Below, in pieces: positions 1 through 10,330 of a stretch of 64,000 nucleotides of DNA; within the stretch, counting starts at the first letter, position 1; every line of letters begins with the position of its first letter. The DNA comes from Escherichia coli (lineage in GTDB: Bacteria; Pseudomonadota; Gammaproteobacteria; Enterobacterales; Enterobacteriaceae): the NCBI RefSeq assembly GCF_024298765.1, contig NZ_CP101210.1, one strand, 5' to 3'. The position numbers and the translations under genes were made by a program. The notes under the pieces were generated by a model. That model ran no database searches. It had not been told where the DNA came from and worked only from the letters and a program-made list of their open reading frames with translations.

Positions 1-1713
1 GAGAAAGCGGTAGTGCGTTATGCCCGTGAACATAATCTCGGCAAGATTATTCTCGGTCGCCCGGCTTCGCGCCGCTGGTGGCGTCGGGAAACATTTGCTG
101 ACCGGCTGGCACGCATCGCCCCCGATCTCGATCAGGTGCTGGTCGCGCTTGATGAACCACCCGCCCGCACGATTAACAACGCGCCGGATAGCCGCTCTTT
201 TAAAGACAAGTGGCGGGTACAGATTCAGGGATGCGTGGTTGCCGCCGCGTTATGCGCCGTTATCACCTTAATTGCCATGCAGTGGCTGATGGCGTTTGAT
301 GCCGCCAACCTGGTGATGCTGTATCTACTTGGCGTGGTGGTGGTGGCGCTATTTTATGGACGCTGGCCTTCGGTGGTTGCTACCGTCATTAATGTGGTGA
401 GTTTCGATCTCTTTTTTATCGCCCCACGCGGCACGCTCGCCGTCTCTGATGTGCAATATCTGCTGACCTTCGCGGTGATGTTAACCGTCGGGCTGGTGAT
501 CGGGAACCTTACTGCTGGCGTGCGTTATCAGGCGCGGGTAGCCCGTTACCGCGAACAACGCACACGGCACTTATATGAAATGTCCAAAGCTCTGGCTGTG
601 GGCCGTAGTTCGCAGGATATCGCCGCCACCAGCGAACAGTTTATTGCCTCCACGTTTCATGCCCGTAGCCAGGTGTTGCTGCCTGATGACAACGGTAAAT
701 TGCAGCCGTTAACACATCCGCAAGGAATGACGCCGTGGGACGATGCCATCGCGCAGTGGAGTTTTGATAAAGGTCTGCCTGCGGGCGCGGGCACCGACAC
801 GTTACCCGGTGTACCGTACCAGATTTTGCCGCTAAAAAGCGGCGAGAAAACCTACGGACTGGTGGTGGTGGAACCGGGGAATCTGCGCCAGTTGATGATC
901 CCGGAACAGCAGCGCCTGCTGGAGACGTTTACGCTGTTAGTCGCCAATGCGCTTGAGCGGCTGACGCTGACCGCCAGCGAAGAACAGGCGCGGATGGCAA
1001 GCGAACGTGAACAGATCCGCAACGCTCTGCTGGCGGCGCTTTCGCATGATTTACGCACGCCGCTCACGGTGCTGTTCGGTCAGGCAGAAATCTTAACGCT
1101 CGATCTGGCAAGCGAAGGATCGCCCCACGCCCGCCAGGCCAGCGAGATTCGTCAGCATGTGCTGAACACGACCCGACTGGTGAATAATCTGCTCGATATG
1201 GCGCGAATTCAGTCCGGCGGCTTTAATTTGAAGAAAGAGTGGTTAACGCTGGAAGAAGTGGTCGGCAGCGCGCTGCAAATGCTGGAACCGGGTTTATCGT
1301 CGCCTATCAATCTTTCTCTGCCAGAACCGCTGACCTTAATCCACGTTGACGGGCCGCTCTTTGAACGGGTGCTGATTAATCTGCTGGAGAACGCGGTGAA
1401 ATACGCGGGTGCGCAGGCCGAAATTGGTATCGATGCCCACGTTGAGGGCGAGAAGCTACAACTGGATGTCTGGGATAACGGCCCCGGTCTTCCGCCAGGC
1501 CAGGAGCAGACGATATTTGATAAGTTTGCTCGCGGGAATAAAGAGTCGGCGGTACCGGGTGTAGGGCTTGGGCTGGCAATTTGTCGGGCGATTGTGGATG
1601 TACACGGCGGCACCATTACCGCGTTCAACCGACCGGAAGGTGGTGCCTGTTTTCGTGTTACACTTCCCCAGCAAACCGCTCCTGAACTTGAAGAATTTCA
1701 TGAGGATATGTGA
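1..1713 (+). CDS. kdpD: Sensor histidine kinase KdpD, C-terminal ~566 aa; 5' end lies upstream of the window
   Basis: Frame 1 is open from base 1; His-kinase H-box (SHDLRTPL) and ATPase motifs (DNGPG, GLGL) present; overlaps kdpE start by 4 bp. Confidence 0.95.
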   Translation, partial: EKAVVRYAREHNLGKIILGRPASRRWWRRETFADRLARIAPDLDQVLVALDEPPARTINNAPDSRSFKDKWRVQIQGCVVAAALCAVITLIAMQWLMAFDAANLVMLYLLGVVVVALFYGRWPSVVATVINVVSFDLFFIAPRGTLAVSDVQYLLTFAVMLTVGLVIGNLTAGVRYQARVARYREQRTRHLYEMSKALAVGRSSQDIAATSEQFIASTFHARSQVLLPDDNGKLQPLTHPQGMTPWDDAIAQWSFDKGLPAGAGTDTLPGVPYQILPLKSGEKTYGLVVVEPGNLRQLMIPEQQRLLETFTLLVANALERLTLTASEEQARMASEREQIRNALLAALSHDLRTPLTVLFGQAEILTLDLASEGSPHARQASEIRQHVLNTTRLVNNLLDMARIQSGGFNLKKEWLTLEEVVGSALQMLEPGLSSPINLSLPEPLTLIHVDGPLFERVLINLLENAVKYAGAQAEIGIDAHVEGEKLQLDVWDNGPGLPPGQEQTIFDKFARGNKESAVPGVGLGLAICRAIVDVHGGTITAFNRPEGGACFRVTLPQQTAPELEEFHEDM

Positions 1714-2387
1714 CAAACGTTCTGATTGTTGAAGATGAACAGGCTATTCGTCGCTTTCTGCGCACGGCGCTGGAAGGCGACGGTATGCGCGTCTTTGAGG
1801 CCGAAACGCTGCAACGCGGCTTGCTGGAAGCGGCTACCCGTAAGCCAGATTTGATTATTCTCGATCTCGGCCTGCCCGATGGTGATGGGATTGAGTTTAT
1901 CCGCGACCTGCGCCAGTGGAGCGCGGTGCCGGTGATTGTGCTTTCCGCACGTAGCGAAGAGAGCGACAAAATCGCCGCGCTGGATGCCGGAGCGGATGAT
2001 TATCTGAGTAAGCCGTTTGGCATTGGCGAATTGCAGGCCCGTCTGCGCGTCGCTTTACGTCGCCACTCCGCCACCGCCGCGCCCGATCCGCTGGTGAAAT
2101 TTTCCGATGTTACCGTCGATTTAGCAGCTCGTGTGATCCATCGGGGCGAGGAAGAGGTGCATCTCACCCCGATTGAGTTCCGCCTGCTGGCAGTGTTGCT
2201 TAATAATGCGGGAAAAGTGCTCACCCAGCGCCAGCTCCTTAACCAGGTGTGGGGGCCAAACGCGGTCGAACACAGTCATTATTTGCGTATTTATATGGGG
2301 CATCTGCGACAAAAACTGGAACAGGACCCGGCCCGGCCTCGCCATTTTATTACTGAAACCGGTATTGGGTATCGGTTTATGCTTTGA
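1710..2387 (+). CDS. kdpE: Response regulator KdpE (GTG start)
   Basis: 225-aa OmpR-family regulator with receiver domain (LIVEDE...DLGLPDGDG) and winged-helix C-terminus; translationally coupled to kdpD. Confidence 0.95.
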   Translation: MTNVLIVEDEQAIRRFLRTALEGDGMRVFEAETLQRGLLEAATRKPDLIILDLGLPDGDGIEFIRDLRQWSAVPVIVLSARSEESDKIAALDAGADDYLSKPFGIGELQARLRVALRRHSATAAPDPLVKFSDVTVDLAARVIHRGEEEVHLTPIEFRLLAVLLNNAGKVLTQRQLLNQVWGPNAVEHSHYLRIYMGHLRQKLEQDPARPRHFITETGIGYRFML

Positions 2388-2424
2388 ATATTAATTTTAA
2401 TACATCCTGCCTTTTATTAATTAA

Positions 2425-2451
2425 AGCCGTAATAATAAATACGGCTTTTTA
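2425..2451 (+). terminator. Rho-independent terminator after kdpE
   Basis: Hairpin agccgt...acggct followed by a T-run. Confidence 0.6.
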
Positions 2452-2620
2452 TCTTAAACAACACACAAAAATAACAATTCAATATTTTATATTACTGAGT
2501 AAAAAGCTCATCATTAAATAAATTAAGATTGATCATTTTTTATTGATCACCTTCACAGTTCAACCGTATTTCCTGGATAGAATACCTTCACCTTCATTCA
2601 CATCAGGAAAGGTAAATTAA

Positions 2621-2725
2621 ATGGAAAATAACAGCCGCACTATGCCCCATATAAGGCGGACAACTCATATTATGAAGTTTGCTCATCGCAATAGCTTCGA
2701 CTTTCACTTCTTCAATGCCCGTTAG
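2621..2725 (+). CDS. speFL: speF leader arrest peptide SpeFL (34 codons)
   Basis: Short ORF MENNSRTMPHIRRTTHIMKFAHRNSFDFHFFNAR about 260 bp upstream of the speF ATG; matches the ornithine-sensing leader peptide as I recall it; not in the ORF track because it is too short. Confidence 0.7.
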   Translation: MENNSRTMPHIRRTTHIMKFAHRNSFDFHFFNAR

Positions 2726-2982
2726 TCTACCGACTAAGGGCACTTCAGCGTACAGGTCTTCCTGACTCTCTGTATTACAGGCATATGCCTGTATTCCGCA
2801 GTGCTCATTCTCTGTTAACCCTTGTATTATCAGCCACCGGACTGATAAGGGTTTCTGCATTCTGAAAAAAGCAAACTTCTGATTAATTTATCAGCGGGGT
2901 AACTTTGCTTTTTTTCCGGCACGATCGATTTCTCATTCGAGAAATTGAGGACCTGCTATTACCCAAAATAAAGAGATGGAAA

Positions 2983-5181
2983 ATGTCAAAATTAAAAATT
3001 GCGGTTAGTGATTCTTGCCCGGACTGTTTTACCACGCAGCGAGAATGTATCTATATTAATGAAAACAGTAATATCGATGTGGCGGCAATAGTTTTATCGC
3101 TCAACGATGTTACACGCGGAAAACTCGATGAAATCGATGCCACGGGTTATGGCATCCCGGTATTTATTGCTACTGAAAATCAAGAACGTGTACCCGCAGA
3201 GTATTTGCCCCGTATTTCGGGTGTCTTTGAGAATTGCGAATCGCGACGAGAATTTTATGGTCGTCAGTTAGAAACCGCAGCCAGCCATTATGAAACGCAA
3301 CTGCGCCCGCCCTTCTTCCGCGCACTGGTCGATTATGTCAATCAGGGTAACAGCGCGTTTGATTGCCCCGGTCATCAGGGCGGCGAATTTTTCCGTCGCC
3401 ATCCCGCGGGGAATCAGTTTGTGGAATACTTTGGTGAGGCGCTGTTCCGTGCTGACTTGTGCAACGCCGACGTAGCGATGGGCGATCTGCTGATTCACGA
3501 AGGCGCGCCATGCATTGCACAGCAACATGCGGCAAAAGTGTTTAATGCCGATAAAACATACTTCGTTTTAAATGGCACTTCATCTTCTAACAAAGTGGTT
3601 TTAAACGCCCTGCTGACACCGGGTGATCTGGTGCTGTTTGACCGCAATAACCACAAATCTAACCACCACGGAGCGTTGCTACAGGCTGGCGCGACACCGG
3701 TTTATCTGGAAACCGCACGTAACCCGTATGGTTTTATCGGTGGTATTGACGCTCACTGTTTTGAAGAAAGTTACCTGCGTGAACTGATCGCGGAATTCGC
3801 ACCGCAGCGGGCAAAAGAGGCTCGTCCTTTCCGCCTCGCCGTTATTCAGCTAGGCACTTACGACGGTACGATTTATAACGCCCGTCAGGTGGTGGATAAA
3901 ATTGGTCATCTGTGTGACTACATCCTCTTTGACTCCGCATGGGTCGGCTATGAGCAGTTTATCCCGATGATGGCGGACTGTTCACCACTGTTGCTGGATC
4001 TTAATGAGAACGATCCGGGTATTCTGGTTACGCAATCTGTGCATAAACAGCAGGCTGGTTTTTCTCAGACTTCACAAATCCATAAAAAAGACAGCCATAT
4101 CAAAGGGCAACAGCGTTATGTACCGCACAAACGCATGAACAACGCCTTTATGATGCATGCCTCCACCAGCCCGTTCTATCCGCTGTTTGCCGCACTGGAT
4201 ATCAACGCCAAAATGCATGAAGGTGTCAGCGGTCGTAATATGTGGATGGATTGTGTGGTAAATGGCATTAATGCCCGCAAACTGATCCTCGATAACTGTC
4301 AGCATATTCGTCCATTCGTACCTGAACTGGTGGATGGTAAACCCTGGCAGTCGTATGAAACGGCGCAAATTGCGGTTGATCTGCGCTTCTTCCAGTTTGT
4401 ACCAGGTGAGCACTGGCATTCTTTTGAAGGCTATGCAGAGAATCAATACTTTGTCGATCCGTGCAAACTGTTGCTGACAACCCCAGGTATTGATGCACGT
4501 AACGGCGAATATGAAGCGTTCGGTGTACCCGCGACGATTCTTGCTAACTTCCTGCGCGAAAATGGCGTAGTGCCGGAAAAATGCGATCTTAACTCCATCC
4601 TCTTTCTGCTGACTCCGGCAGAAGATATGGCCAAACTTCAGCAACTTGTTGCTCTGCTGGTACGCTTCGAAAAACTGCTTGAGTCCGACGCGCCATTATC
4701 AGAAGTACTGCCTTCCATCTACAAACAGCATGAAGAGCGCTACACCGGTTATACCCTGCGTCAGTTGTGTCAGGAAATGCATGATTTGTATGCCCGTCAC
4801 AACGTGAAACAACTGCAAAAAGAGATGTTCCGTAAGGAACACTTCCCACGCGTAAGCATGAATCCACAAGAAGCCAACTACGCCTATTTACGCGGTGAAG
4901 TGGAGCTGGTTCGTCTGCCGGATGCAGAAGGCCGTATCGCTGCCGAAGGTGCGCTTCCTTATCCTCCGGGTGTGCTGTGTGTTGTTCCGGGTGAAATCTG
5001 GGGTGGTGCTGTTCTGCGTTACTTCAGCGCTCTGGAAGAAGGGATCAACCTGCTGCCAGGTTTTGCACCAGAGCTGCAGGGTGTCTATATCGAAGAACAT
5101 GATGGTCGTAAGCAAGTTTGGTGCTATGTCATCAAGCCTCGTGATGCGCAAAGCACCCTGTTGAAAGGGGAAAAATTATGA
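2983..5181 (+). CDS. speF: Inducible ornithine decarboxylase SpeF (732 aa)
   Basis: Large fold-type I PLP decarboxylase; start taken at MSKLKIAV with RBS aagaga upstream, not the extended ORF-track start at 2905. Confidence 0.95.
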   Translation: MSKLKIAVSDSCPDCFTTQRECIYINENSNIDVAAIVLSLNDVTRGKLDEIDATGYGIPVFIATENQERVPAEYLPRISGVFENCESRREFYGRQLETAASHYETQLRPPFFRALVDYVNQGNSAFDCPGHQGGEFFRRHPAGNQFVEYFGEALFRADLCNADVAMGDLLIHEGAPCIAQQHAAKVFNADKTYFVLNGTSSSNKVVLNALLTPGDLVLFDRNNHKSNHHGALLQAGATPVYLETARNPYGFIGGIDAHCFEESYLRELIAEFAPQRAKEARPFRLAVIQLGTYDGTIYNARQVVDKIGHLCDYILFDSAWVGYEQFIPMMADCSPLLLDLNENDPGILVTQSVHKQQAGFSQTSQIHKKDSHIKGQQRYVPHKRMNNAFMMHASTSPFYPLFAALDINAKMHEGVSGRNMWMDCVVNGINARKLILDNCQHIRPFVPELVDGKPWQSYETAQIAVDLRFFQFVPGEHWHSFEGYAENQYFVDPCKLLLTTPGIDARNGEYEAFGVPATILANFLRENGVVPEKCDLNSILFLLTPAEDMAKLQQLVALLVRFEKLLESDAPLSEVLPSIYKQHEERYTGYTLRQLCQEMHDLYARHNVKQLQKEMFRKEHFPRVSMNPQEANYAYLRGEVELVRLPDAEGRIAAEGALPYPPGVLCVVPGEIWGGAVLRYFSALEEGINLLPGFAPELQGVYIEEHDGRKQVWCYVIKPRDAQSTLLKGEKL

Positions 5182-6497
5182 GTCAGGCTAAATCGAATAA
5201 GATGGGCGTCGTTCAGTTAACCATACTGACGATGGTCAACATGATGGGCTCCGGTATCATCATGCTGCCGACAAAGCTTGCCGAAGTTGGGACAATCTCA
5301 ATTATCTCCTGGCTGGTGACAGCCGTAGGCTCAATGGCACTGGCATGGGCATTCGCAAAATGCGGTATGTTCAGCCGTAAATCAGGCGGTATGGGCGGTT
5401 ATGCGGAGTATGCTTTCGGTAAATCCGGGAACTTTATGGCGAACTACACCTACGGTGTCTCGCTGCTGATTGCTAACGTCGCGATTGCTATTTCGGCGGT
5501 TGGTTACGGCACCGAACTGCTCGGCGCGAGTTTGTCGCCAGTGCAGATTGGTCTTGCGACCATCGGAGTGCTGTGGATTTGTACCGTGGCTAACTTTGGT
5601 GGTGCGCGCATTACCGGGCAAATCAGTAGCATTACTGTGTGGGGGGTCATTATTCCGGTCGTCGGTCTGTGCATTATCGGCTGGTTCTGGTTTAGCCCGA
5701 CGCTATACGCTAACTCATGGAACCCGCACCATGTGCCGTTCTTTAGCGCTGTAGGTTCTTCCATCGCCATGACGTTGTGGGCTTTCCTCGGTCTGGAGTC
5801 AGCCTGTGCCAACGCCGAAGTAGTTGAAAACCCGGAACGTAACGTGCCGATTGCAGTTCTTGGCGGTACTTTAGGTGCGGCGGTGATTTATATCGTCTCC
5901 ACCAACGTGATTGCAGGGATAGTGCCTAATATGGAGCTGGCAAATTCAACGGCACCATTTGGCCTGACTTTCGCACAGATGTTCACGCCAGAAGTGGGTA
6001 AAGTCATTATGGCGCTGATGGTGATGTCCTGCTGCGGTTCACTGCTTGGCTGGCAGTTCACCATTGCCCAGGTGTTTAAATCTTCATCTGATGAAGGCTA
6101 CTTCCCTAAAATTTTCTCCCGTGTAACCAAAGTGGATGCACCGGTTCAGGGAATGTTGACCATTGTGATTATTCAGAGTGGATTGGCACTGATGACCATT
6201 AGCCCGTCACTGAACAGCCAGTTCAACGTGCTGGTTAACCTGGCCGTGGTGACCAATATCATTCCGTATATTCTGTCGATGGCAGCATTAGTCATTATTC
6301 AGCAGGTCGCTAATGTGCCACCATCAAAAGCGAAAGTAGCAAACTTTGTTGCCTTTGTTGGTGCGATGTACAGTTTCTATGCGCTGTACTCATCCGGGGA
6401 AGAAGCCATGCTGTACGGTTCCATCGTGACCTTCCTTGGTTGGACACTGTATGGTCTGGTCTCACCACGCTTTGAACTGAAAAATAAACACGGTTAA
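5178..6497 (+). CDS. potE: Putrescine-ornithine antiporter PotE
   Basis: 439-aa polytopic APC-family transporter; 4-bp overlap with the speF stop. Confidence 0.95.
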   Translation: MSQAKSNKMGVVQLTILTMVNMMGSGIIMLPTKLAEVGTISIISWLVTAVGSMALAWAFAKCGMFSRKSGGMGGYAEYAFGKSGNFMANYTYGVSLLIANVAIAISAVGYGTELLGASLSPVQIGLATIGVLWICTVANFGGARITGQISSITVWGVIIPVVGLCIIGWFWFSPTLYANSWNPHHVPFFSAVGSSIAMTLWAFLGLESACANAEVVENPERNVPIAVLGGTLGAAVIYIVSTNVIAGIVPNMELANSTAPFGLTFAQMFTPEVGKVIMALMVMSCCGSLLGWQFTIAQVFKSSSDEGYFPKIFSRVTKVDAPVQGMLTIVIIQSGLALMTISPSLNSQFNVLVNLAVVTNIIPYILSMAALVIIQQVANVPPSKAKVANFVAFVGAMYSFYALYSSGEEAMLYGSIVTFLGWTLYGLVSPRFELKNKHG

Positions 6498-6512
6498 TAA
6501 AGCAAAGTAAAA

Positions 6513-6545
6513 AAGGGCGATTGAATGGTCGCCCTTTCTGTTTGT
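6513..6545 (+). terminator. Rho-independent terminator after potE
   Basis: Hairpin gggcga...tcgccc followed by a T-run. Confidence 0.6.
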
Positions 6546-6577
6546 TGACAAAGAGTTCTTTATTTATGCCGCATCCG

Positions 6578-6722
6578 GCAGGTGTAGGATCCAAACGCGG
6601 TCGGACACAGCAACTATTTGCGTAATTATATGAGGCATTTGCGACAAAAACTGGAACAGGATCTCGCCCGCCCCGCCATTTCATTACTGAAACCAGTATT
6701 GGGTATCGGTTTATGCTTTGAA
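6578..6722 (+). repeat. Degenerate direct copy of the kdpE 3' end (about 90% identity to 2243..2389)
   Basis: Aligned by eye: caggtgt..ccaaacgcggtcg..ttgcgacaaaaactggaacagga..attactgaaacc.gtattgggtatcggtttatgctttgaa; kdpE reading frame is lost after an indel. Confidence 0.85.
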
Positions 6723-6844
6723 AAAAGTGGCATTGTATGGATAAAGTCATTTTTTATTCACATATAAGGAACTTAATATTTAAAAAATGTCCCATACAAT
6801 GCCTCATCATAAATGACACCGTAGCATACAAGGAGCAAGTAGCG

Positions 6845-7240
6845 ATGCGTGATTGGACACAACGCCCTGAATTCGCAAGCGTGCGGGCTTTACCCATCGC
6901 CGATGATGTCGCAGGGGGAATTTTCTTAATGGTGGCGATCTTGGGGAAGATACTGGCTGCGTTTATTATTTTGCGCCAGATACGCTGATTTGGGAAAGTC
7001 TGGAGGTTGGATATTCTGAGTTTCTTCAGTGGGCATTATCCGGTGATTTAGATACCTTCAATGAAAATGTACGCTGGCCGCAATGGCAAGAAGACGTAAT
7101 AAAATTATCGGCAACGGAAGCCTTCACTTTCTACCCTTTCTTATGGGTACAAAGTGAAGAAGCAAGAACAAGAAAAGTTATTTCGCTTACTGAACTCTGG
7201 GAAATGCAGTATCAAATGAAAGAAACATTCACGCAATAAG
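6845..7240 (+). pseudogene. Frameshifted ORF remnant (ybfG-like); N-terminal 47 codons in one frame, about 100 further codons in another frame with no start
   Basis: ORF MRDWTQRPEFASVRALPIADD... ends at 6988; the adjacent frame reads ...FAPDTLIWESLEVGYSEFLQWALSGDLDTFNENVRWPQWQEDVIKLS...KETFTQ* without an ATG. Confidence 0.3.
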
Positions 7241-7279: not shown

Positions 7280-7774
7280 TTAATGTGTATTTATCGCTTT
7301 CAATTCTTGCTGGCAATTTTCTGACTGGCAGCGTCGCAACTCAATAATCCCGACATGCATCATCGAGCCAATAAAGCCGCTTTCGCTGACATAATCCTCA
7401 TTAACTATCGGTCGAGTGCCGGGCTTGCCCTGGCAAACCTGCATAAAAAATGAGGTGTAGCATTGCCAACCAGGATTTAAACCGGCCTTTTCTTGTGCTG
7501 ACATATCGTGAAGATAAGTAAGTTCTTTTTCGTTCCCGCCTGACAACTGCCAGCGGCGGGTATTATCAGGTAAGTTATCGCCACGGCAATTTGTCTTACA
7601 CCGGGAAAGCGCAATATTTACCGCAATGCTCCCCGTTAATCCTCTGGTTTTATCTTTAGGGGTCAGTAACCAGTCACCAGCTAATGATGATTGTTCAGGT
7701 TGGGCGCATGCTGTCAGCAGTAGTGTGGCGGTAATTAATGTCACTCTGACGACCAGACTCCTTTTGGTCTTCAT
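7280..7774 (-). CDS. ybfP: Lipoprotein YbfP (164 aa)
   Basis: Signal peptide plus lipobox (LLLTAC); start taken at MKTKRSLVV rather than the extended ORF-track start. Confidence 0.8.
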   Translation of the reverse strand: MKTKRSLVVRVTLITATLLLTACAQPEQSSLAGDWLLTPKDKTRGLTGSIAVNIALSRCKTNCRGDNLPDNTRRWQLSGGNEKELTYLHDMSAQEKAGLNPGWQCYTSFFMQVCQGKPGTRPIVNEDYVSESGFIGSMMHVGIIELRRCQSENCQQELKAINTH

Positions 7775-7825
7775 TTTGAATTCCCTTGAGCTATTCAGTT
7801 TGTTGGCAAAGTGCTCGTTGTTCAT

Positions 7826-7930
7826 GCCGGATGCGGCGTGAACGCCTTATCCGGCCTACAAAATCGCGTAAATTCAATATATTGCACCATCTTCCCAGGC
7901 CTGATAAGCGTAGCGCATCAGGCAGTCATA
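7826..7930. repeat. REP/BIME palindromic elements
   Basis: Two inverted REP units (gccggatgcggcgtgaacgccttatccggcctaca ... aggcctgataagcgtagcgcatcaggca). Confidence 0.6.
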
Positions 7931-7934
7931 AGTA

Positions 7935-8640
7935 ATAAATATCCTCCGGCATAGCCGGAGGTTTTTCAAATGCGCCTATAAGGCTCTCTTACCAGCCGCG
8001 CCCTAACAGGCGCACACGATCTGACATTTGCATCCAACTTCGTTACTTACGGCCCGTAAACGGGCTGCCCGGATAGGGAATCGATAACTGCTCTCCCATT
8101 TTATCCTCTTCAAGCTGGTGCTTTATGTAATCCTGTATCTTCGCCGTGTTCTTACCCACCGTATCGACGTAGTACCCTCTGCACCAGAACTCTCTGTTCC
8201 TGTATTTGAATTTCAAATCACCAAACTGCTCGTAAAGCATCAGACTGCTTTTCCCTTTCAGATATCCCATAAAGCCGGATACACTCATTTTGGGCGGGAT
8301 CTCCACAAGCATATGGATATGATCTGCACAGCATTCAGCTTCAAGAATCCGTACGCTTTTCCACTCACACAGCTTTCTCAAAATACTGCCTATTGCTCTA
8401 CGCTTCTCTCTGTAGAACACTTGTCTTCGGTATTTTGGCGCAAAAACTATGTGATATTTACAGTTCCATCGGGTGTGCGCTAAGCTCTTTTCGTTCCCCA
8501 TTGGGACCCCCTTTTGATTTCTTGTTTGACACTTGCAGTTGCCAGACCGCAAGGTGTTTTAACAAATCAAAAGGGGTTTTAATAACTGGCTCAAAGCTGA
8601 AAGCTTTCCGGAACCCCCAGCCTAGCTGGGGGTTTTCTGT
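7935..8640 (-). mobile_element. IS200-family insertion sequence (boundaries approximate)
   Basis: Contains a Y1 HUH transposase gene plus subterminal hairpins (cccccagc-cta-gctggggg at 8614..8632; cctccggcatagccggagg at 7943..7961); about 0.7 kb, as expected for IS200. Confidence 0.55.
8043..8501 (-). CDS. tnpA: IS200 transposase TnpA (152 aa)
   Basis: Near-identical to Salmonella IS200 TnpA as I recall it (MGNEKSLAHTRWNCKYHIVFAPKYRR...HIHML...CRGYYVDTVG); HUH motif and catalytic Tyr present. Confidence 0.85.
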   Translation of the reverse strand: MGNEKSLAHTRWNCKYHIVFAPKYRRQVFYREKRRAIGSILRKLCEWKSVRILEAECCADHIHMLVEIPPKMSVSGFMGYLKGKSSLMLYEQFGDLKFKYRNREFWCRGYYVDTVGKNTAKIQDYIKHQLEEDKMGEQLSIPYPGSPFTGRK

Positions 8641-8647
8641 GCACAAA

Positions 8648-8676
8648 AAAGGGCGATCTTCCGACCGCCCTTTTTC
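8648..8676 (-). terminator. Terminator downstream of pgm
   Basis: Hairpin gggcg...cgccc flanked by A/T runs immediately 3' of the pgm stop. Confidence 0.5.
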
Positions 8677-8689
8677 TTATTAAATGTGT

Positions 8690-10330
8690 TTACGCGTTTT
8701 TCAGAACTTCGCTAACAATCTCAACCGCTTCTTTCTCAATTTGCTTGCGATGTTCTTCCCCGAGGAAGCTTTCGCAATAAATCTTGTACGCGTCTTCCGT
8801 GCCTGACGGACGCGCGGCGAACCAGCCGTTGTCAGTCATCACTTTCAGACCGCCAATAGAAGCACCGTTGCCCGGAGCAGCAGTCAGGCGTGCGGTGATC
8901 GGGTCACCTGCCAGGGTGCTGGCGCTCACCATTTCCGGAGACAGTTTAGACAGCGCCGCTTTTTGTGCGGAAGTCGCGGCTGCCTGCAAACGGTTGTAGC
9001 TCGGCGCACCAAAGCGTTTTGCCAGTTCGTTGTAGTGTTCCTGCGGATTCTTACCGGTAACAGCGGTGATTTCCGCCGCCAGCAGACACATAATGATGCC
9101 GTCTTTATCGGTGGACCACGGCGTGCCGTCGAAACGCAGGAAGGAAGCCCCTGCGCTCTCTTCGCCGCCAAAGCCGAAGCTGCCGTCGAACAGACCATCA
9201 ACAAACCATTTGAAACCTACCGGGACTTCTACCAGCTTACGGCCCAAGTCATTGACCACACGGTCGATCATCGCAGATGAAACCAGCGTTTTACCGACAG
9301 CAACATCTTTGCCCCACTGCGGACGGTGCTGGAACAGGTAGTTGATCGCCACCGCCAGGTAGTGGTTCGGATTCATCAAACCTGCCGGAGTGACGATACC
9401 GTGACGGTCATAATCCGGGTCGTTAGCAAACGCCAGATCGAACTTATCACGCAGTGCCAGCAGGCCCGCCATCGCACACTCGGAGGAGCAGTCCATACGG
9501 ATCGCACCGTCTTTATCTAGGTGCATAAAGCGGAAGGTTTGATCGACCTGATCGTTAACGATGGTCAGGTTGAGGTTGTAATACTCGCCAATACGCTTCC
9601 AGTATTCGATACCAGAACCGCCCAGCGGATCGACACCCAGCGTCAGGCCCGCTTTCTGAATCGCTGCCATATCAACGATATCGGCCAGCCCTTCCACGAA
9701 CGGCTGCACCAGATCCTGCTCTTTCACATGACCGGATGCCATCGCTTCGTCGAGGGAGATACGCTTCACGCCTTTCAGGCCATCAGCCATCAGTGCGTTG
9801 GCCCTGTCTTCCACCACTTTAGTGACGTTGGTATCAGCCGGGCCACCATTTGGCGGATTGTACTTGATACCACCATCTTCCGGCGGGTTATGAGACGGTG
9901 TAATCACGATACCGTCTGCCAGCGGGCCACCTTTTTTATTGTGAACCAGAATGGCATTGGAAATGGCAGGTGTCGGAGTGAAGCCATTGTTTTCCTGCAC
10001 AATGATATCAACACCGTTCGCTGCCAGCACTTCCAGTACGGAAATGAACGCAGGCTCGGACAGGGCGTGAGTATCTTTACCCACATAGCAAGGGCCAGTG
10101 ATGCCGTTTTTCGCACGTTCTTCAGCAATTGCCTGAGCGATCGCCAGAATGTGCGGCTCGTTAAAGCTGTGGCGCGCTGCACTGCCACGGTGACCGGAAG
10201 TACCGAATTTCACCGCGTGCTCCGCATTCCCTGCTTCTGGTTTCAGTACATAATATTGCGCCGTCAGTTGGGCGACGTTAATCAAATCACTCTGTTGTGC
10301 AGGTTGGCCTGCACGATTGTGGATTGCCAT
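8690..10330 (-). CDS. pgm: Phosphoglucomutase (546 aa)
   Basis: Alpha-D-phosphohexomutase signature (TPSHNP); start at MAIHNRAG. Confidence 0.95.

Follow-up and report, generated by a model that had tools for sequence, protein, structure and literature searches.

The ybfI pseudogene of Escherichia coli as a relic kdpE tail, probably left where two alternative cargoes of the kdpE/pgm site were joined in tandem

In the window, the 64-kb stretch of Escherichia coli DNA analyzed here, the speFL-speF-potE module is flanked exactly by two copies of the kdpE 3' end, as the initial annotation had pointed out. The second of these copies has already been annotated in E. coli K-12, as pseudogene ybfI (b4636). 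We propose that ybfI is probably the surviving 3' end of a kdpE gene formerly located directly upstream of ybfG-ybfP on an Escherichia chromosome lacking speF-potE, and that it reached its present position when two alternative cargoes were joined in tandem near a REP/BIME element. Being left at the joint of two alternative cargoes, ybfI would thus not be a mark of the original arrival of speF-potE. The interval between kdpE and pgm is a variable slot, which in E. coli holds speFL-speF-potE with its terminator T1 (cargo A), ybfP with a segment R and a BIME, or both. The features of the slot in the window are as follows.

1710..2387, plus strand: kdpE, intact response regulator gene (ORF; RefSeq annotation of strain 104, whose locus is identical; Pfam Response_reg and Trans_reg_C)
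2244..2388, plus strand: L, the functional copy of the repeat, with kdpE codons 179-225, the stop codon and 1 nt (repeat search, MAFFT, blastn)
2423..2448, plus strand: terminator-like hairpin 3' of kdpE, where cargo A begins (terminator scan)
2621..2725, plus strand: speFL leader peptide ORF (ORF; annotation)
2983..5181, plus strand: speF, inducible ornithine decarboxylase (annotation; Pfam OKR_DC_1 domains)
5178..6497, plus strand: potE, putrescine-ornithine antiporter (annotation; Pfam AA_permease_2)
6512..6537, plus strand: T1, potE terminator hairpin (terminator scan; comparison with T2 and E. albertii)
6536..6579, plus strand: R1, decayed copy of the ybfP-upstream segment R (repeat comparison)
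6579..6722, plus strand: L', relic kdpE tail, ybfI (b4636) (repeat search, MAFFT, blastn; RefSeq)
6723..6845, plus strand: spacer, native 3' neighbor of the relic stop codon, upstream of ybfG
6846..7239, plus strand: ybfG' (DUF2625) remnant, with an internal deletion of ~255 nt in the source strain (the gene is intact in E200086, IAI39 and others)
7280..7774, minus strand: ybfP lipoprotein gene
7794..7837, plus strand: R2, native ybfP-upstream segment, continuing into the first REP of the BIME
7825..7926, plus strand: BIME, two inverted REP units, also present at the empty kdpE/pgm site in E. whittamii and L006
7936..8644, minus strand: IS200C insertion (tnpA 8043-8501), particular to the lineage of the source strain
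8645..8678, plus strand: T2, bidirectional terminator on the pgm side
8690..10330, minus strand: pgm, conserved right border of the variable site

The kdpE tail repeat and its decayed copy

A repeat search, MAFFT and blastn aligned L (2244-2388) with L' (6579-6722) colinearly over 145 positions at 88.3% identity, with 16 mismatches and one 1-nt gap (E=4e-50). This is close to the ~145 bp and ~90% first reported and far above the 70% below which the initial annotation would have given up the repeat. L comprises the last 47 kdpE codons (179-225), the stop codon and one further nucleotide, the homology starting at kdpE nt 535 (codon 179) and ending one base past the stop (TGA-A). A chance origin is excluded because the next-best match of the 146-nt segment in the window reaches only E=0.085 over 19 nt. 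The claim of a frame-breaking indel was borne out by a 1-nt deletion in a run of C at ~6669/6670; together with an in-frame stop (TGG to TAG) at 6585-6587 and the RefSeq designation as pseudogene ybfI, it also sustains the view of the downstream copy as a relic, a decayed kdpE 3' fragment. The 13 substitutions preceding the indel are spread over codon positions 1, 2 and 3 as 3/5/5, which agrees with neutral decay. The copy had also been placed immediately against the potE terminator; this has to be corrected, as a 44-nt segment (6536-6579), itself one copy of a second direct repeat, separates T1 (6512-6537) from L'.

L' shares with K-12 ybfI both its position between potE and ybfG and its sequence family. 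The K-12 feature, annotated as a pseudogene at NC_000913.3 716721-716870, spans the C-terminal 47-49 codons of kdpE, and the window relic is 91% identical to it over 146 nt (blastn). The window carries the minor (beta) allele, in which the 1-nt deletion is extra relative to the K-12 allele. The RefSeq annotation of the source strain gives L' as a partial, frameshifted winged-HTH pseudogene, and PGAP likewise labels the relic of other strains a partial winged-HTH pseudogene. When the K-12-type allele was scanned, its translation matched positions 41-77 of the 77 of Trans_reg_C (PF00486; E=6e-8), and the 44-aa out-of-frame translation of the K-12 relic had no Pfam match. In terms of affinity, the relic is closest to Escherichia: its identity to kdpE tails is 86-93% there and does not exceed 84% in any other genus, and it has the E. 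coli TGA-A stop context. EcoGene reportedly described ybfI as a 'KdpE homolog' fragment. The annotation of ybfI is silent on its origin, and a search of the accessible literature for E. coli ybfI, ybfG and ybfP returned just B. subtilis namesakes or incidental mentions, none on E. coli ybfI.

A second, interleaved repeat ending in a REP

The segment between T1 and the relic, R1 (6536-6579), recurs in direct orientation as R2 (7794-7837), with 80% identity over 44 nt and a match in 0 of 100 shuffles. The two repeat pairs are interleaved as L-A-R1|L'-B-R2 (L, kdpE tail; A, speF-potE; B, ybfG-ybfP), and the full order in the window is kdpE(L)-A-T1-R1 | L'-ybfG-ybfP-R2-BIME-T2-pgm. Both flanks are thus duplicated in the pattern L..R|L'..R around one novel joint (R|L', at 6579), as in a tandem joint. 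R1 itself is bounded by two novel joints, T1|R on the left and REP|kdpE' on the right. Its 3' end consists of 13 nt of REP (GCCGCATCCGGCA) lying directly against kdpE', which places the novel joint in or at a REP, as in REP-associated join points. At this end ATGCCG|CATCCGGCA joins a REP head to an inverted-REP tail, and looks like a collapsed BIME. The microhomology is only 2-3 nt (CA/CAG at REP|kdpE', TTC at T1|R), in sequence that is ~10-25% decayed, and is weak evidence.

R is native to ybfP, as can be seen in 247 E. coli genomes with the order kdpE-10 nt-BIME-ybfP-R-BIME-T2-pgm. T1 and T2 are 74% identical over 34 nt, T1 also resembling the single potE/pgm terminator of E. albertii, and the BIME-T2 right flank of the long form, which has both cargoes, is matched in E. 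whittamii and L006 at their empty site, kdpE-BIME-T2-pgm. REP clusters of E. coli are known hotspots for duplication joints (22 of 90 junctions; PMC3161906), and in strain 2018-05-2CC (L105) we found an independent tandem duplication of kdpE tail plus BIME with a period of 186-190 nt.

Distribution of the contents of the site

Among 5426 complete E. coli genomes, 3197 have speF-potE between kdpE and pgm without a second kdpE tail, in the order potE-T-pgm. The same is true of ~30 other species from more than 10 genera, speF-potE occurring with one kdpE tail in the same slot in E. albertii, Citrobacter, Enterobacter, Kluyvera, Lelliottia, Leclercia, Atlantibacter, Cedecea and others. The relic is present in only ~1900 E. 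coli genomes (~35%, with ~65% lacking it) and is absent from the 80 other species in which it was sought, many of which have speF-potE at the corresponding position; Salmonella, E. fergusonii, E. marmotae, E. ruysiae and clade I fall outside these 80 loci. In every relic-bearing locus read, the relic adjoins ybfG-ybfP and is paired with the interleaved right-flank repeat.

Some 5-7% of the complete E. coli genomes, EAEC 042 among them, have no speF-potE at the kdpE/pgm site. The order kdpE-ybfP, without speF-potE, ybfG and the relic, is found in 247 genomes (such as 042, 23CRST011 and EC1515), and A-less E. coli chromosomes with ybfP beside kdpE therefore exist. Sites without speF-potE do carry one kdpE end, which is what the initial annotation had proposed to look for at empty sites; they include those of E. 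whittamii L005, L006, Citrobacter, Pantoea, Serratia and others. At this site ybfG-ybfP is accessory and E. coli-specific: DUF2625 occurs within 10 kb of kdpE in 0 of 80 other species, and since its closest homologues outside E. coli are just 50-57% identical, the ybfG-ybfP islet is ultimately foreign. The search for a ybfG donor recovered no homologues of 57%-86% identity, except three 1-kb Logan contigs (L088-L090). These were uninformative, being too short, transition-rich and devoid of a close complete-genome match, and their transitions possibly stem from damaged or erroneous reads. Between kdpE-speF-potE alleles the nucleotide difference reaches 7-9%, about two-thirds of the distance to E. 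albertii.

Deletion products and mosaicism

Recombination across each repeat pair removes one cargo, and both of the products predicted from a tandem joint are found in nature. The L x L' product, kdpE-ybfG-ybfP-pgm, is present in CUWW10 and GF4-3; as their ybfG-ybfP is just 0.4-1.1% from K-12, nested within the K-12-type long form, these are derived. The R1 x R2 product, potE-T1-R-BIME-T2-pgm, is present in R32 and N96. Because they share their kdpE, speF, potE, BIME and T2 alleles with the EC42405/E200086 long form, we read them as probable R1 x R2 deletions, and the order potE-T1-R-BIME-T2-pgm was accordingly set aside as an empty site predating ybfI-ybfG-ybfP. The joint in R32 and N96 shows four odd substitutions in 10 nt (AGATTATTAA). 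A search with a chimeric query for an ancestral kdpE-ybfG-ybfP haplotype yielded three genomes, all derived, two nested in the K-12-type long form and one an IS1 deletion. Of the single-cargo forms, A-only is thus seen in 3197 genomes and A-less kdpE-ybfP in 247, with the exact parents, kdpE-ybfG-ybfP and potE-T1-R-BIME, seen just as apparently derived deletions. The relic is in addition disrupted by IS3 in TUM9812 and removed by IS1 in KL53 and ET846.

A table of variable sites in eight relic/kdpE pairs revealed that the relic is a mosaic. The marks of decay in the first 58 nt are common to all relics, whereas the last 88 nt of the K-12-type relic are those of a live kdpE allele, from which they differ at 0-1 sites, against 7 within the first 58 nt (Fisher p=0.001-0.007). 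Such a decayed tract beside a tract identical to the live gene, varying by clade, is typical of non-allelic gene conversion, and the pattern of sites indicates patchy conversion of the relic from kdpE. Which live kdpE allele the conserved half matches varies from clade to clade, as is expected from gene conversion and not from selection on the relic.

Origin of the second tail

Whereas the anatomy, distribution, deletion products and mosaicism of the site are shown directly, how the joint formed, in what order the events took place and which cargo came in are inferred. Between the two cargoes, a piece of right flank (R1, ending in REP sequence) is fused to a piece of left flank (L'), which is the signature of two alternative haplotypes placed in tandem through an illegitimate joint beside a REP/BIME. 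The route may have been an unequal crossover, or a circularized fragment that integrated by one homologous crossover. On this account, the relic and R1 then decayed neutrally, gene conversion with kdpE as the donor replaced the 3' part of the relic on at least one occasion, and speF-potE or ybfI-ybfG-ybfP is occasionally lost through L x L' or R1 x R2 recombination, respectively. Against this scenario stands the lack of a non-derived kdpE-ybfG-ybfP parent, the three genomes with kdpE next to ybfG being recent deletions (one via IS1), and the existing A-less haplotype is without ybfG. Moreover, as two novel joints (T1|R and REP|kdpE') have to be explained, a strictly one-step origin needs an unsampled potE-T1-R-BIME parent, and the two genomes of this form look derived. 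Entry of A into a B chromosome and of B into an A chromosome both fit, the kdpE-tail alleles being too shuffled by recombination for the direction to be read from them. A local duplication of kdpE tail plus BIME, as in 2018-05-2CC, followed by insertion of ybfG and speF-potE was rejected, as it leaves the homology of R1 to the ybfP-upstream segment unexplained.

The initial annotation had viewed the repeat as a scar of the acquisition of the module, with duplication of the insertion target, or as a recombination footprint. The interleaved repeats uphold the footprint; the single tail of other genera and of 3197 E. coli genomes tells against a scar of the original acquisition or a duplicated target. 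That the kdpE end was duplicated on the original acquisition of speFL-speF-potE, as a target duplication or as a surrogate gene end of the kind left by integrative elements, would account for the exact bracketing of the module and for the single kdpE end of sites lacking it. However, the module sits in the same slot with a single tail in more than 10 genera, and a neutral relic of an acquisition common to genera of Enterobacteriaceae could not remain 88-93% identical to kdpE. Further, this reading leaves R1/R2 and the constant adjacency of the relic to ybfG-ybfP in the loci read unexplained. The DNA between the copies encodes just speFL, speF and potE, with no recombinase, integrase, transposase or terminal inverted repeats, and the repeat does not accompany speF-potE as an att-type scar should in the ~30 other species and 3197 E. 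coli genomes. Nor is it like the target-site duplication of a transposon, being 145 nt long and diverged, with no inverted repeats at the borders of the module. The distribution thus largely refutes the original-acquisition reading, which we regard as highly improbable.

A related possibility, to which we give appreciably more weight while still considering it rather unlikely, is that speF-potE was re-acquired within E. coli by a kdpE-ybfG-ybfP-R-BIME chromosome, a donor circle (window 2244-6579) integrating in Campbell fashion through a single RecA crossover within the 145 nt of shared kdpE sequence. The repeat would then be a scar of speF-potE entry after all, albeit a secondary one within E. 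coli. Such an event yields the order L-A-R1|L'-B-R2 in a single step and relies on 145 nt, which recombine better than 44 nt; chromosomes without A are known from E. coli and other Escherichia, and linear DNA surviving in E. coli mainly circularizes and integrates by a single crossover (PMC3240628). The donor fragment would begin at kdpE nt 535 and extend to the REP downstream of potE. The difficulty is that R is native to ybfP, yet the donor must already have had it beside T1 (potE-T1-R-REP), an order seen solely in R32 and N96, which look derived from the long form, and that the recipient kdpE-ybfG-ybfP is known just as a derived deletion. Import of the kdpE fragment together with ybfG-ybfP from the kdpE neighborhood of another species draws on the accessory, E. 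coli-specific nature of these genes and on their DUF2625 homologues of 50-57% elsewhere. It is nevertheless very improbable, given the closeness of the relic to Escherichia kdpE, its E. coli stop context and the lack of DUF2625 near kdpE in the 80 other species; from a donor as distant as the ybfG homologues, the kdpE tail would be far more divergent. Least credible of all is retention of the copy for a function, for instance if it encoded a small ORF or RNA or contained a site regulating ybfG or potE. Its 3' half is strikingly better conserved than its 5' half, and a weak promoter-like match (6718-6747) overlaps the relic end, but the conserved half tracks the live kdpE alleles by clade, and the reading frame of the copy is broken by a stop codon and a frameshift, with substitutions at codon positions 1, 2 and 3; the copy is absent from ~65% of E. 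coli genomes and has been interrupted or deleted by insertion sequences. An Rfam scan of the relic and R1 found no family, promoter-like matches overall are at chance level (11 found versus 9.8 expected), and the promoter and terminator scans added nothing beyond T1 and the kdpE terminator.

Thus, a tandem joint of two haplotypes remains our preferred explanation. A more speculative extension, which we think unlikely, is that the kdpE/pgm slot, for which four cargo states are found, is a long-lived, possibly balanced polymorphism, in which L/L' and R1/R2 (and T1/T2) would form a built-in switch shedding either the acid-inducible speF-potE module or ybfG-ybfP via RecA, with gene conversion keeping the kdpE-tail repeat competent for recombination. 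As the relic was already known as a pseudogene and the underlying process is ordinary illegitimate and homologous recombination at a variable site, nothing fundamental is changed. The locus is of value as a worked example in which a short gene-end relic, a second interleaved repeat and population data lead to the tandem fusion of two alternative hotspot cargoes, and its repeats still cause rare natural loss of speF-potE or ybfG-ybfP. It also teaches that relatives should be checked before bracketing repeats are read as acquisition scars.

Comparison with known systems

Site-specific integration is known to duplicate gene ends, as with e14, whose integration in icd leaves icdC, and with tRNA-targeting islands. 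As in these, direct repeats of a 3' end bracket accessory DNA here and one copy is a pseudogene remnant; in contrast to them, there is no integrase or att core, and the repeat is absent where speF-potE occurs in other taxa. In the C-terminal displacement of rhs genes and the T6SS effector-immunity arrays of V. cholerae, displaced downstream genes are pushed along with the old 3' remnant, giving strings of orphaned 3' regions (PMC5361080). These share with the kdpE/pgm site an upstream homology anchor and an illegitimate joint on the other side, but in the latter a response regulator gene takes the place of the polymorphic toxin as the conserved gene, displacement took a single step, and the right flank is also duplicated (R1/R2), which points to a tandem joint and not to a simple one-sided displacement. 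Homology-facilitated illegitimate recombination and circularization with single-crossover integration are experimentally demonstrated routes for the entry of linear chromosomal fragments that leave duplicated homology around an insert and are thereby candidate routes here, the former being very rare in E. coli (3e-10 per recipient; PMC3240628). Finally, the duplications with join points at REP/BIME elements (PMC3161906) resemble this locus in having the joint at a REP and a direct duplication that can be lost by homologous recombination; the microhomology, a few bases at most, is not decisive after the decay seen here. Those duplications are transient laboratory events with identical copies, whereas the one at the kdpE/pgm site is fixed in about one-third of the species, old (~10% decay) and made up of different cargo.

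Interleaved direct repeats between kdpE and pgm

The initial annotation described a second copy of the kdpE 3' end downstream of potE, and this repeat is real: a repeat search, MAFFT and blastn agree in matching 2244-2388 with 6579-6722 over 145 aligned positions (88.3% identity, 16 mismatches, one gap, E=4e-50), and blastn recovered no further meaningful match to the kdpE-tail segment elsewhere in the 64 kb. The downstream copy is indeed a kdpE 3' fragment with a frame-breaking indel, a 1-nt deletion, to which an in-frame TAG is to be added. This relic is an already annotated feature, its K-12 counterpart being the pseudogene ybfI (b4636); PGAP labels it as a partial, frameshifted winged-HTH pseudogene, and the K-12 allele still matches positions 41-77 of the 77 of Pfam Trans_reg_C. 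Its substitutions are distributed 3/5/5 over codon positions 1/2/3, as expected under neutral decay. The region 6480-6800 is 100% identical to that of E. coli strain 104 (NZ_CP029164).

The gene order is kdpD, kdpE, speFL, speF, potE, terminator T1, ybfI', ybfG', ybfP (minus), a BIME (paired inverted REP units), IS200C, terminator T2, pgm (minus) and seqA, with ybfG', a DUF2625 gene, being damaged in this strain. A second direct repeat, missed in the initial annotation, spans 44 nt at 80% identity, and its match is absent from all shuffles of the window.

Repeat copies in the window
L, 2244-2388: first copy; kdpE codons 179-225, the stop codon and one more base
R1, 6536-6579: between T1 and the relic
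L', 6579-6722: second copy; carries TGG->TAG (6585-6587) and lacks 1 nt of a C-run near 6669/6670
R2, 7794-7837: upstream of ybfP, continuing into the first REP of the BIME

The two repeats interleave, giving the layout L-A-R1|L'-B-R2, where A is speFL-speF-potE with T1 and B is spacer-ybfG-ybfP; we term the arrangement with both cargoes the long form. T1 and T2 are 74% similar over 34 nt, with 13 nt identical.

Compared with the intact ybfG of E200086 and IAI39, the copy at 6846-7239 has lost ~255 nt internally; the K-12 gene has a defect of another kind and many strains retain an intact copy, so that its decay is independent between lineages. IS200 copies lie directly upstream of terminator hairpins, namely T2 in the window (7936-8644, minus) and in comparison locus L003 (7036-7740; order potE-IS200-T2-pgm), and T1 in L004 (6292-7000). 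A genome with two such copies could lose ybfI-ybfG-ybfP by an IS-mediated event. An Rfam STnc490 match (8511-8634, minus) is located inside the IS200, adjoining the 5' end of tnpA.

The kdpE/pgm slot in other species

We compared 80 loci, one KdpE-bearing genome per species, by tblastn and blastn, a sample outside which fall several close outgroups, including E. fergusonii, E. marmotae and Salmonella. kdpE directly faces pgm in convergent orientation in Pantoea, Serratia, Dickeya, Yersinia and many Enterobacteriaceae, and the space between the two genes is occupied by speF-potE in E. albertii, several Citrobacter, Enterobacter, Kluyvera, Lelliottia, Leclercia, Atlantibacter, Cedecea, Trabulsiella and others, with a potE-pgm gap of usually only 60-170 nt. 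The comparison, suggested in the initial annotation for sites lacking speF-potE, yielded exactly one kdpE tail in 80 of 80 loci, with or without the module, and neither ybfG nor ybfP was detected in any of them. This distribution contradicts the proposal that the repeat is a scar of enterobacterial speF-potE acquisition or a target-site duplication. The relic is closest to Escherichia kdpE (86-93% identity, as against at most 84% for other genera). The order kdpE-10 nt-BIME-T2-pgm occurs in E. whittamii and in another Escherichia that is not E. coli (L006), indicating that the window's right flank, BIME-T2, is that of the empty site. Other genera hold unrelated cargo in the kdpE-pgm or potE-pgm gap, such as a recurrent 142-aa membrane protein, an ABC-transporter-like cluster and regulators (loci L043, L056, L031, L079, L063, L027, L022, L045); thus, the slot is a variable site, and it acts like a hotspot of integration or replacement.

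E. albertii has one terminator between potE and pgm (L007:14860-14924), with a loop of the T1 type (cgaatg); that of the E. coli short form is of the T2 type (cttccg; L098-L100), and the long form carries both (window 6509-6542 and 8645-8678). The pair may be a flank duplication from speF-potE entry into a BIME-T2-bearing Escherichia chromosome.

Haplotypes and deletion products within E. coli

Among 5426 complete E. coli genomes, with counts that depend on megablast thresholds, the relic region is present in 1915, potE-T2-pgm without intervening DNA in 3197 and ybfP in 2112. The excess of ybfP over the relic pointed us to a fourth haplotype, also common, with the order kdpE-10 nt-BIME-ybfP-R-BIME-T2-pgm; it is present in 247 genomes, among them L103, L104 (EAEC 042) and L106, and is devoid of speF-potE, ybfG and the relic. 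It establishes that R is native to the region upstream of ybfP, making R1 beside T1 the displaced copy, and that E. coli chromosomes with ybfP beside kdpE and without cargo A exist. Not all E. coli carry the inducible ornithine decarboxylase/antiporter module, since ~300 of the 5426 genomes gave no speF megablast match.

A chimeric kdpE+ybfG query retrieved three genomes with kdpE directly beside ybfG. CUWW10 and GF4-3 combine a live allele of the kdpE tail with a downstream spacer that corresponds to the K-12 relic flank, and their ybfG-ybfP diverges from K-12 by only 0.4-1.1%, versus 4% between the two long-form clades; by their alleles, these two are evidently recent L x L' deletions of speF-potE. 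The module was lost via IS1 in KL53 and ET846. A synthetic query found potE-T1-R-BIME-T2-pgm in two genomes, R32 and N96, whose alleles match the EC42405/E200086 long form (speF divergence 0.1-0.7%) and which are, on this evidence, apparent R1 x R2 deletions of ybfI-ybfG-ybfP. E57, a short form, has nearly the speF of the long-form IAI39 (0.2% divergence) and the same T2 variant, from which we infer that some short forms may be T1 x T2 deletions.

The R1xR2 joint in R32_14_1F (L091:6130-6160) and N96 (L092) reads AGATTATTAA, both parental repeats being (A/T)GTTTGTTG(A/G), i.e. four clustered changes in 10 nt with otherwise identical flanks.

Age of the joint and gene conversion

Eight relic/kdpE pairs resolve into two relic clades, alpha (K-12 type, ~1646 genomes) and beta (the window, IAI39, SMS-3-5 and others, ~268), as counted by identity bands of the relic search. 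The first 58 nt contain decay marks common to all relics (the TAG stop, GGG->GGT, CAT->AAC, ATT->AAT). Over its last 88 nt the alpha relic matches a live kdpE allele, that of the window's own kdpE, with 0-1 differences as against 7 over the first 58 nt (Fisher p=0.001-0.007); the 3' part of the beta relic is similar to another live allele and additionally has the 1-nt deletion. The simplest reading of these alignments would be one or more gene conversion events with kdpE as donor and the relic as recipient. Shared decay amounts to ~9%, more than separates the two clades, and R1 and R2 are ~20% apart, which makes the joint old and places it near the base of E. coli.

The kdpE-speF-potE locus is unusually diverse within E. 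coli, with nucleotide divergence reaching 8.8% for speF, 7.4% for kdpE and 6.7% for potE, as against 2-3.5% for neighbouring pgm and 11-13.5% for speF/potE to E. albertii. Across 1710-6497, comparison with 12 other E. coli loci distinguishes at least two deep allele classes, including two speFL proteins and two intergenic layouts, shuffled among cargo states. Logan contigs L088-L090 (~1 kb) hold kdpE-tail-spacer-ybfG-ybfP versions 86-90% identical to E. coli, with no close match among complete E. coli genomes; the changes in L088 appear on reading to be mostly C->T, and the contigs could stem from damaged reads or an unsampled Escherichia lineage.

Origin of the long form

The relic stop codon is immediately followed by the spacer and ybfG, and at the centre of the long form a piece of the right flank is joined to one from the left flank. 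Taken with R being native to ybfP, these features indicate a tandem juxtaposition of two haplotypes, apparently one bearing A and one lacking A and bearing ybfG-ybfP. The 3' end of R1 reads ATGCCG|CATCCGGCA, directly abutting kdpE nt 535, which is seemingly a REP head joined to an inverted-REP tail across a GCCG microhomology, i.e. a collapsed BIME; the T1|R1 joint reads ccctttc|tgtttg, where the native sequence is ctattc|agtttg. The joint microhomologies are short. REP clusters are documented hotspots of duplication joints in E. coli, with 22 of the 90 junctions sequenced in one study falling in them (PMC3161906). In strain 2018-05-2CC (L105:3659-4017) and two relatives (H191, H192), the final ~81 nt of kdpE and the adjoining BIME have been duplicated in tandem independently (period 186-190 nt, 96% identity), yielding a second, distinct kdpE-tail relic; hence, REP/BIME-associated duplication of the kdpE tail has occurred at least twice at this locus.

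The observed order could have arisen by an unequal (illegitimate) crossover, by a tandem duplication joined at REP in which one copy was later replaced, or by circularisation of a fragment that was then integrated by a single crossover, a process experimentally shown in E. coli (PMC3240628). A non-derived kdpE-ybfG-ybfP parent was not found with the chimeric query, and the data are compatible with either cargo being the incomer. Had speF-potE come into a kdpE-ybfG-ybfP chromosome via the 145-nt homology, the term acquisition scar would hold in a narrow, secondary sense; the interpretation in the initial annotation is partly right. The mechanism is of a known kind, and orphaned 3' fragments left behind when cassettes are displaced at rhs and T6SS loci are the closest analogues described (PMC5361080).
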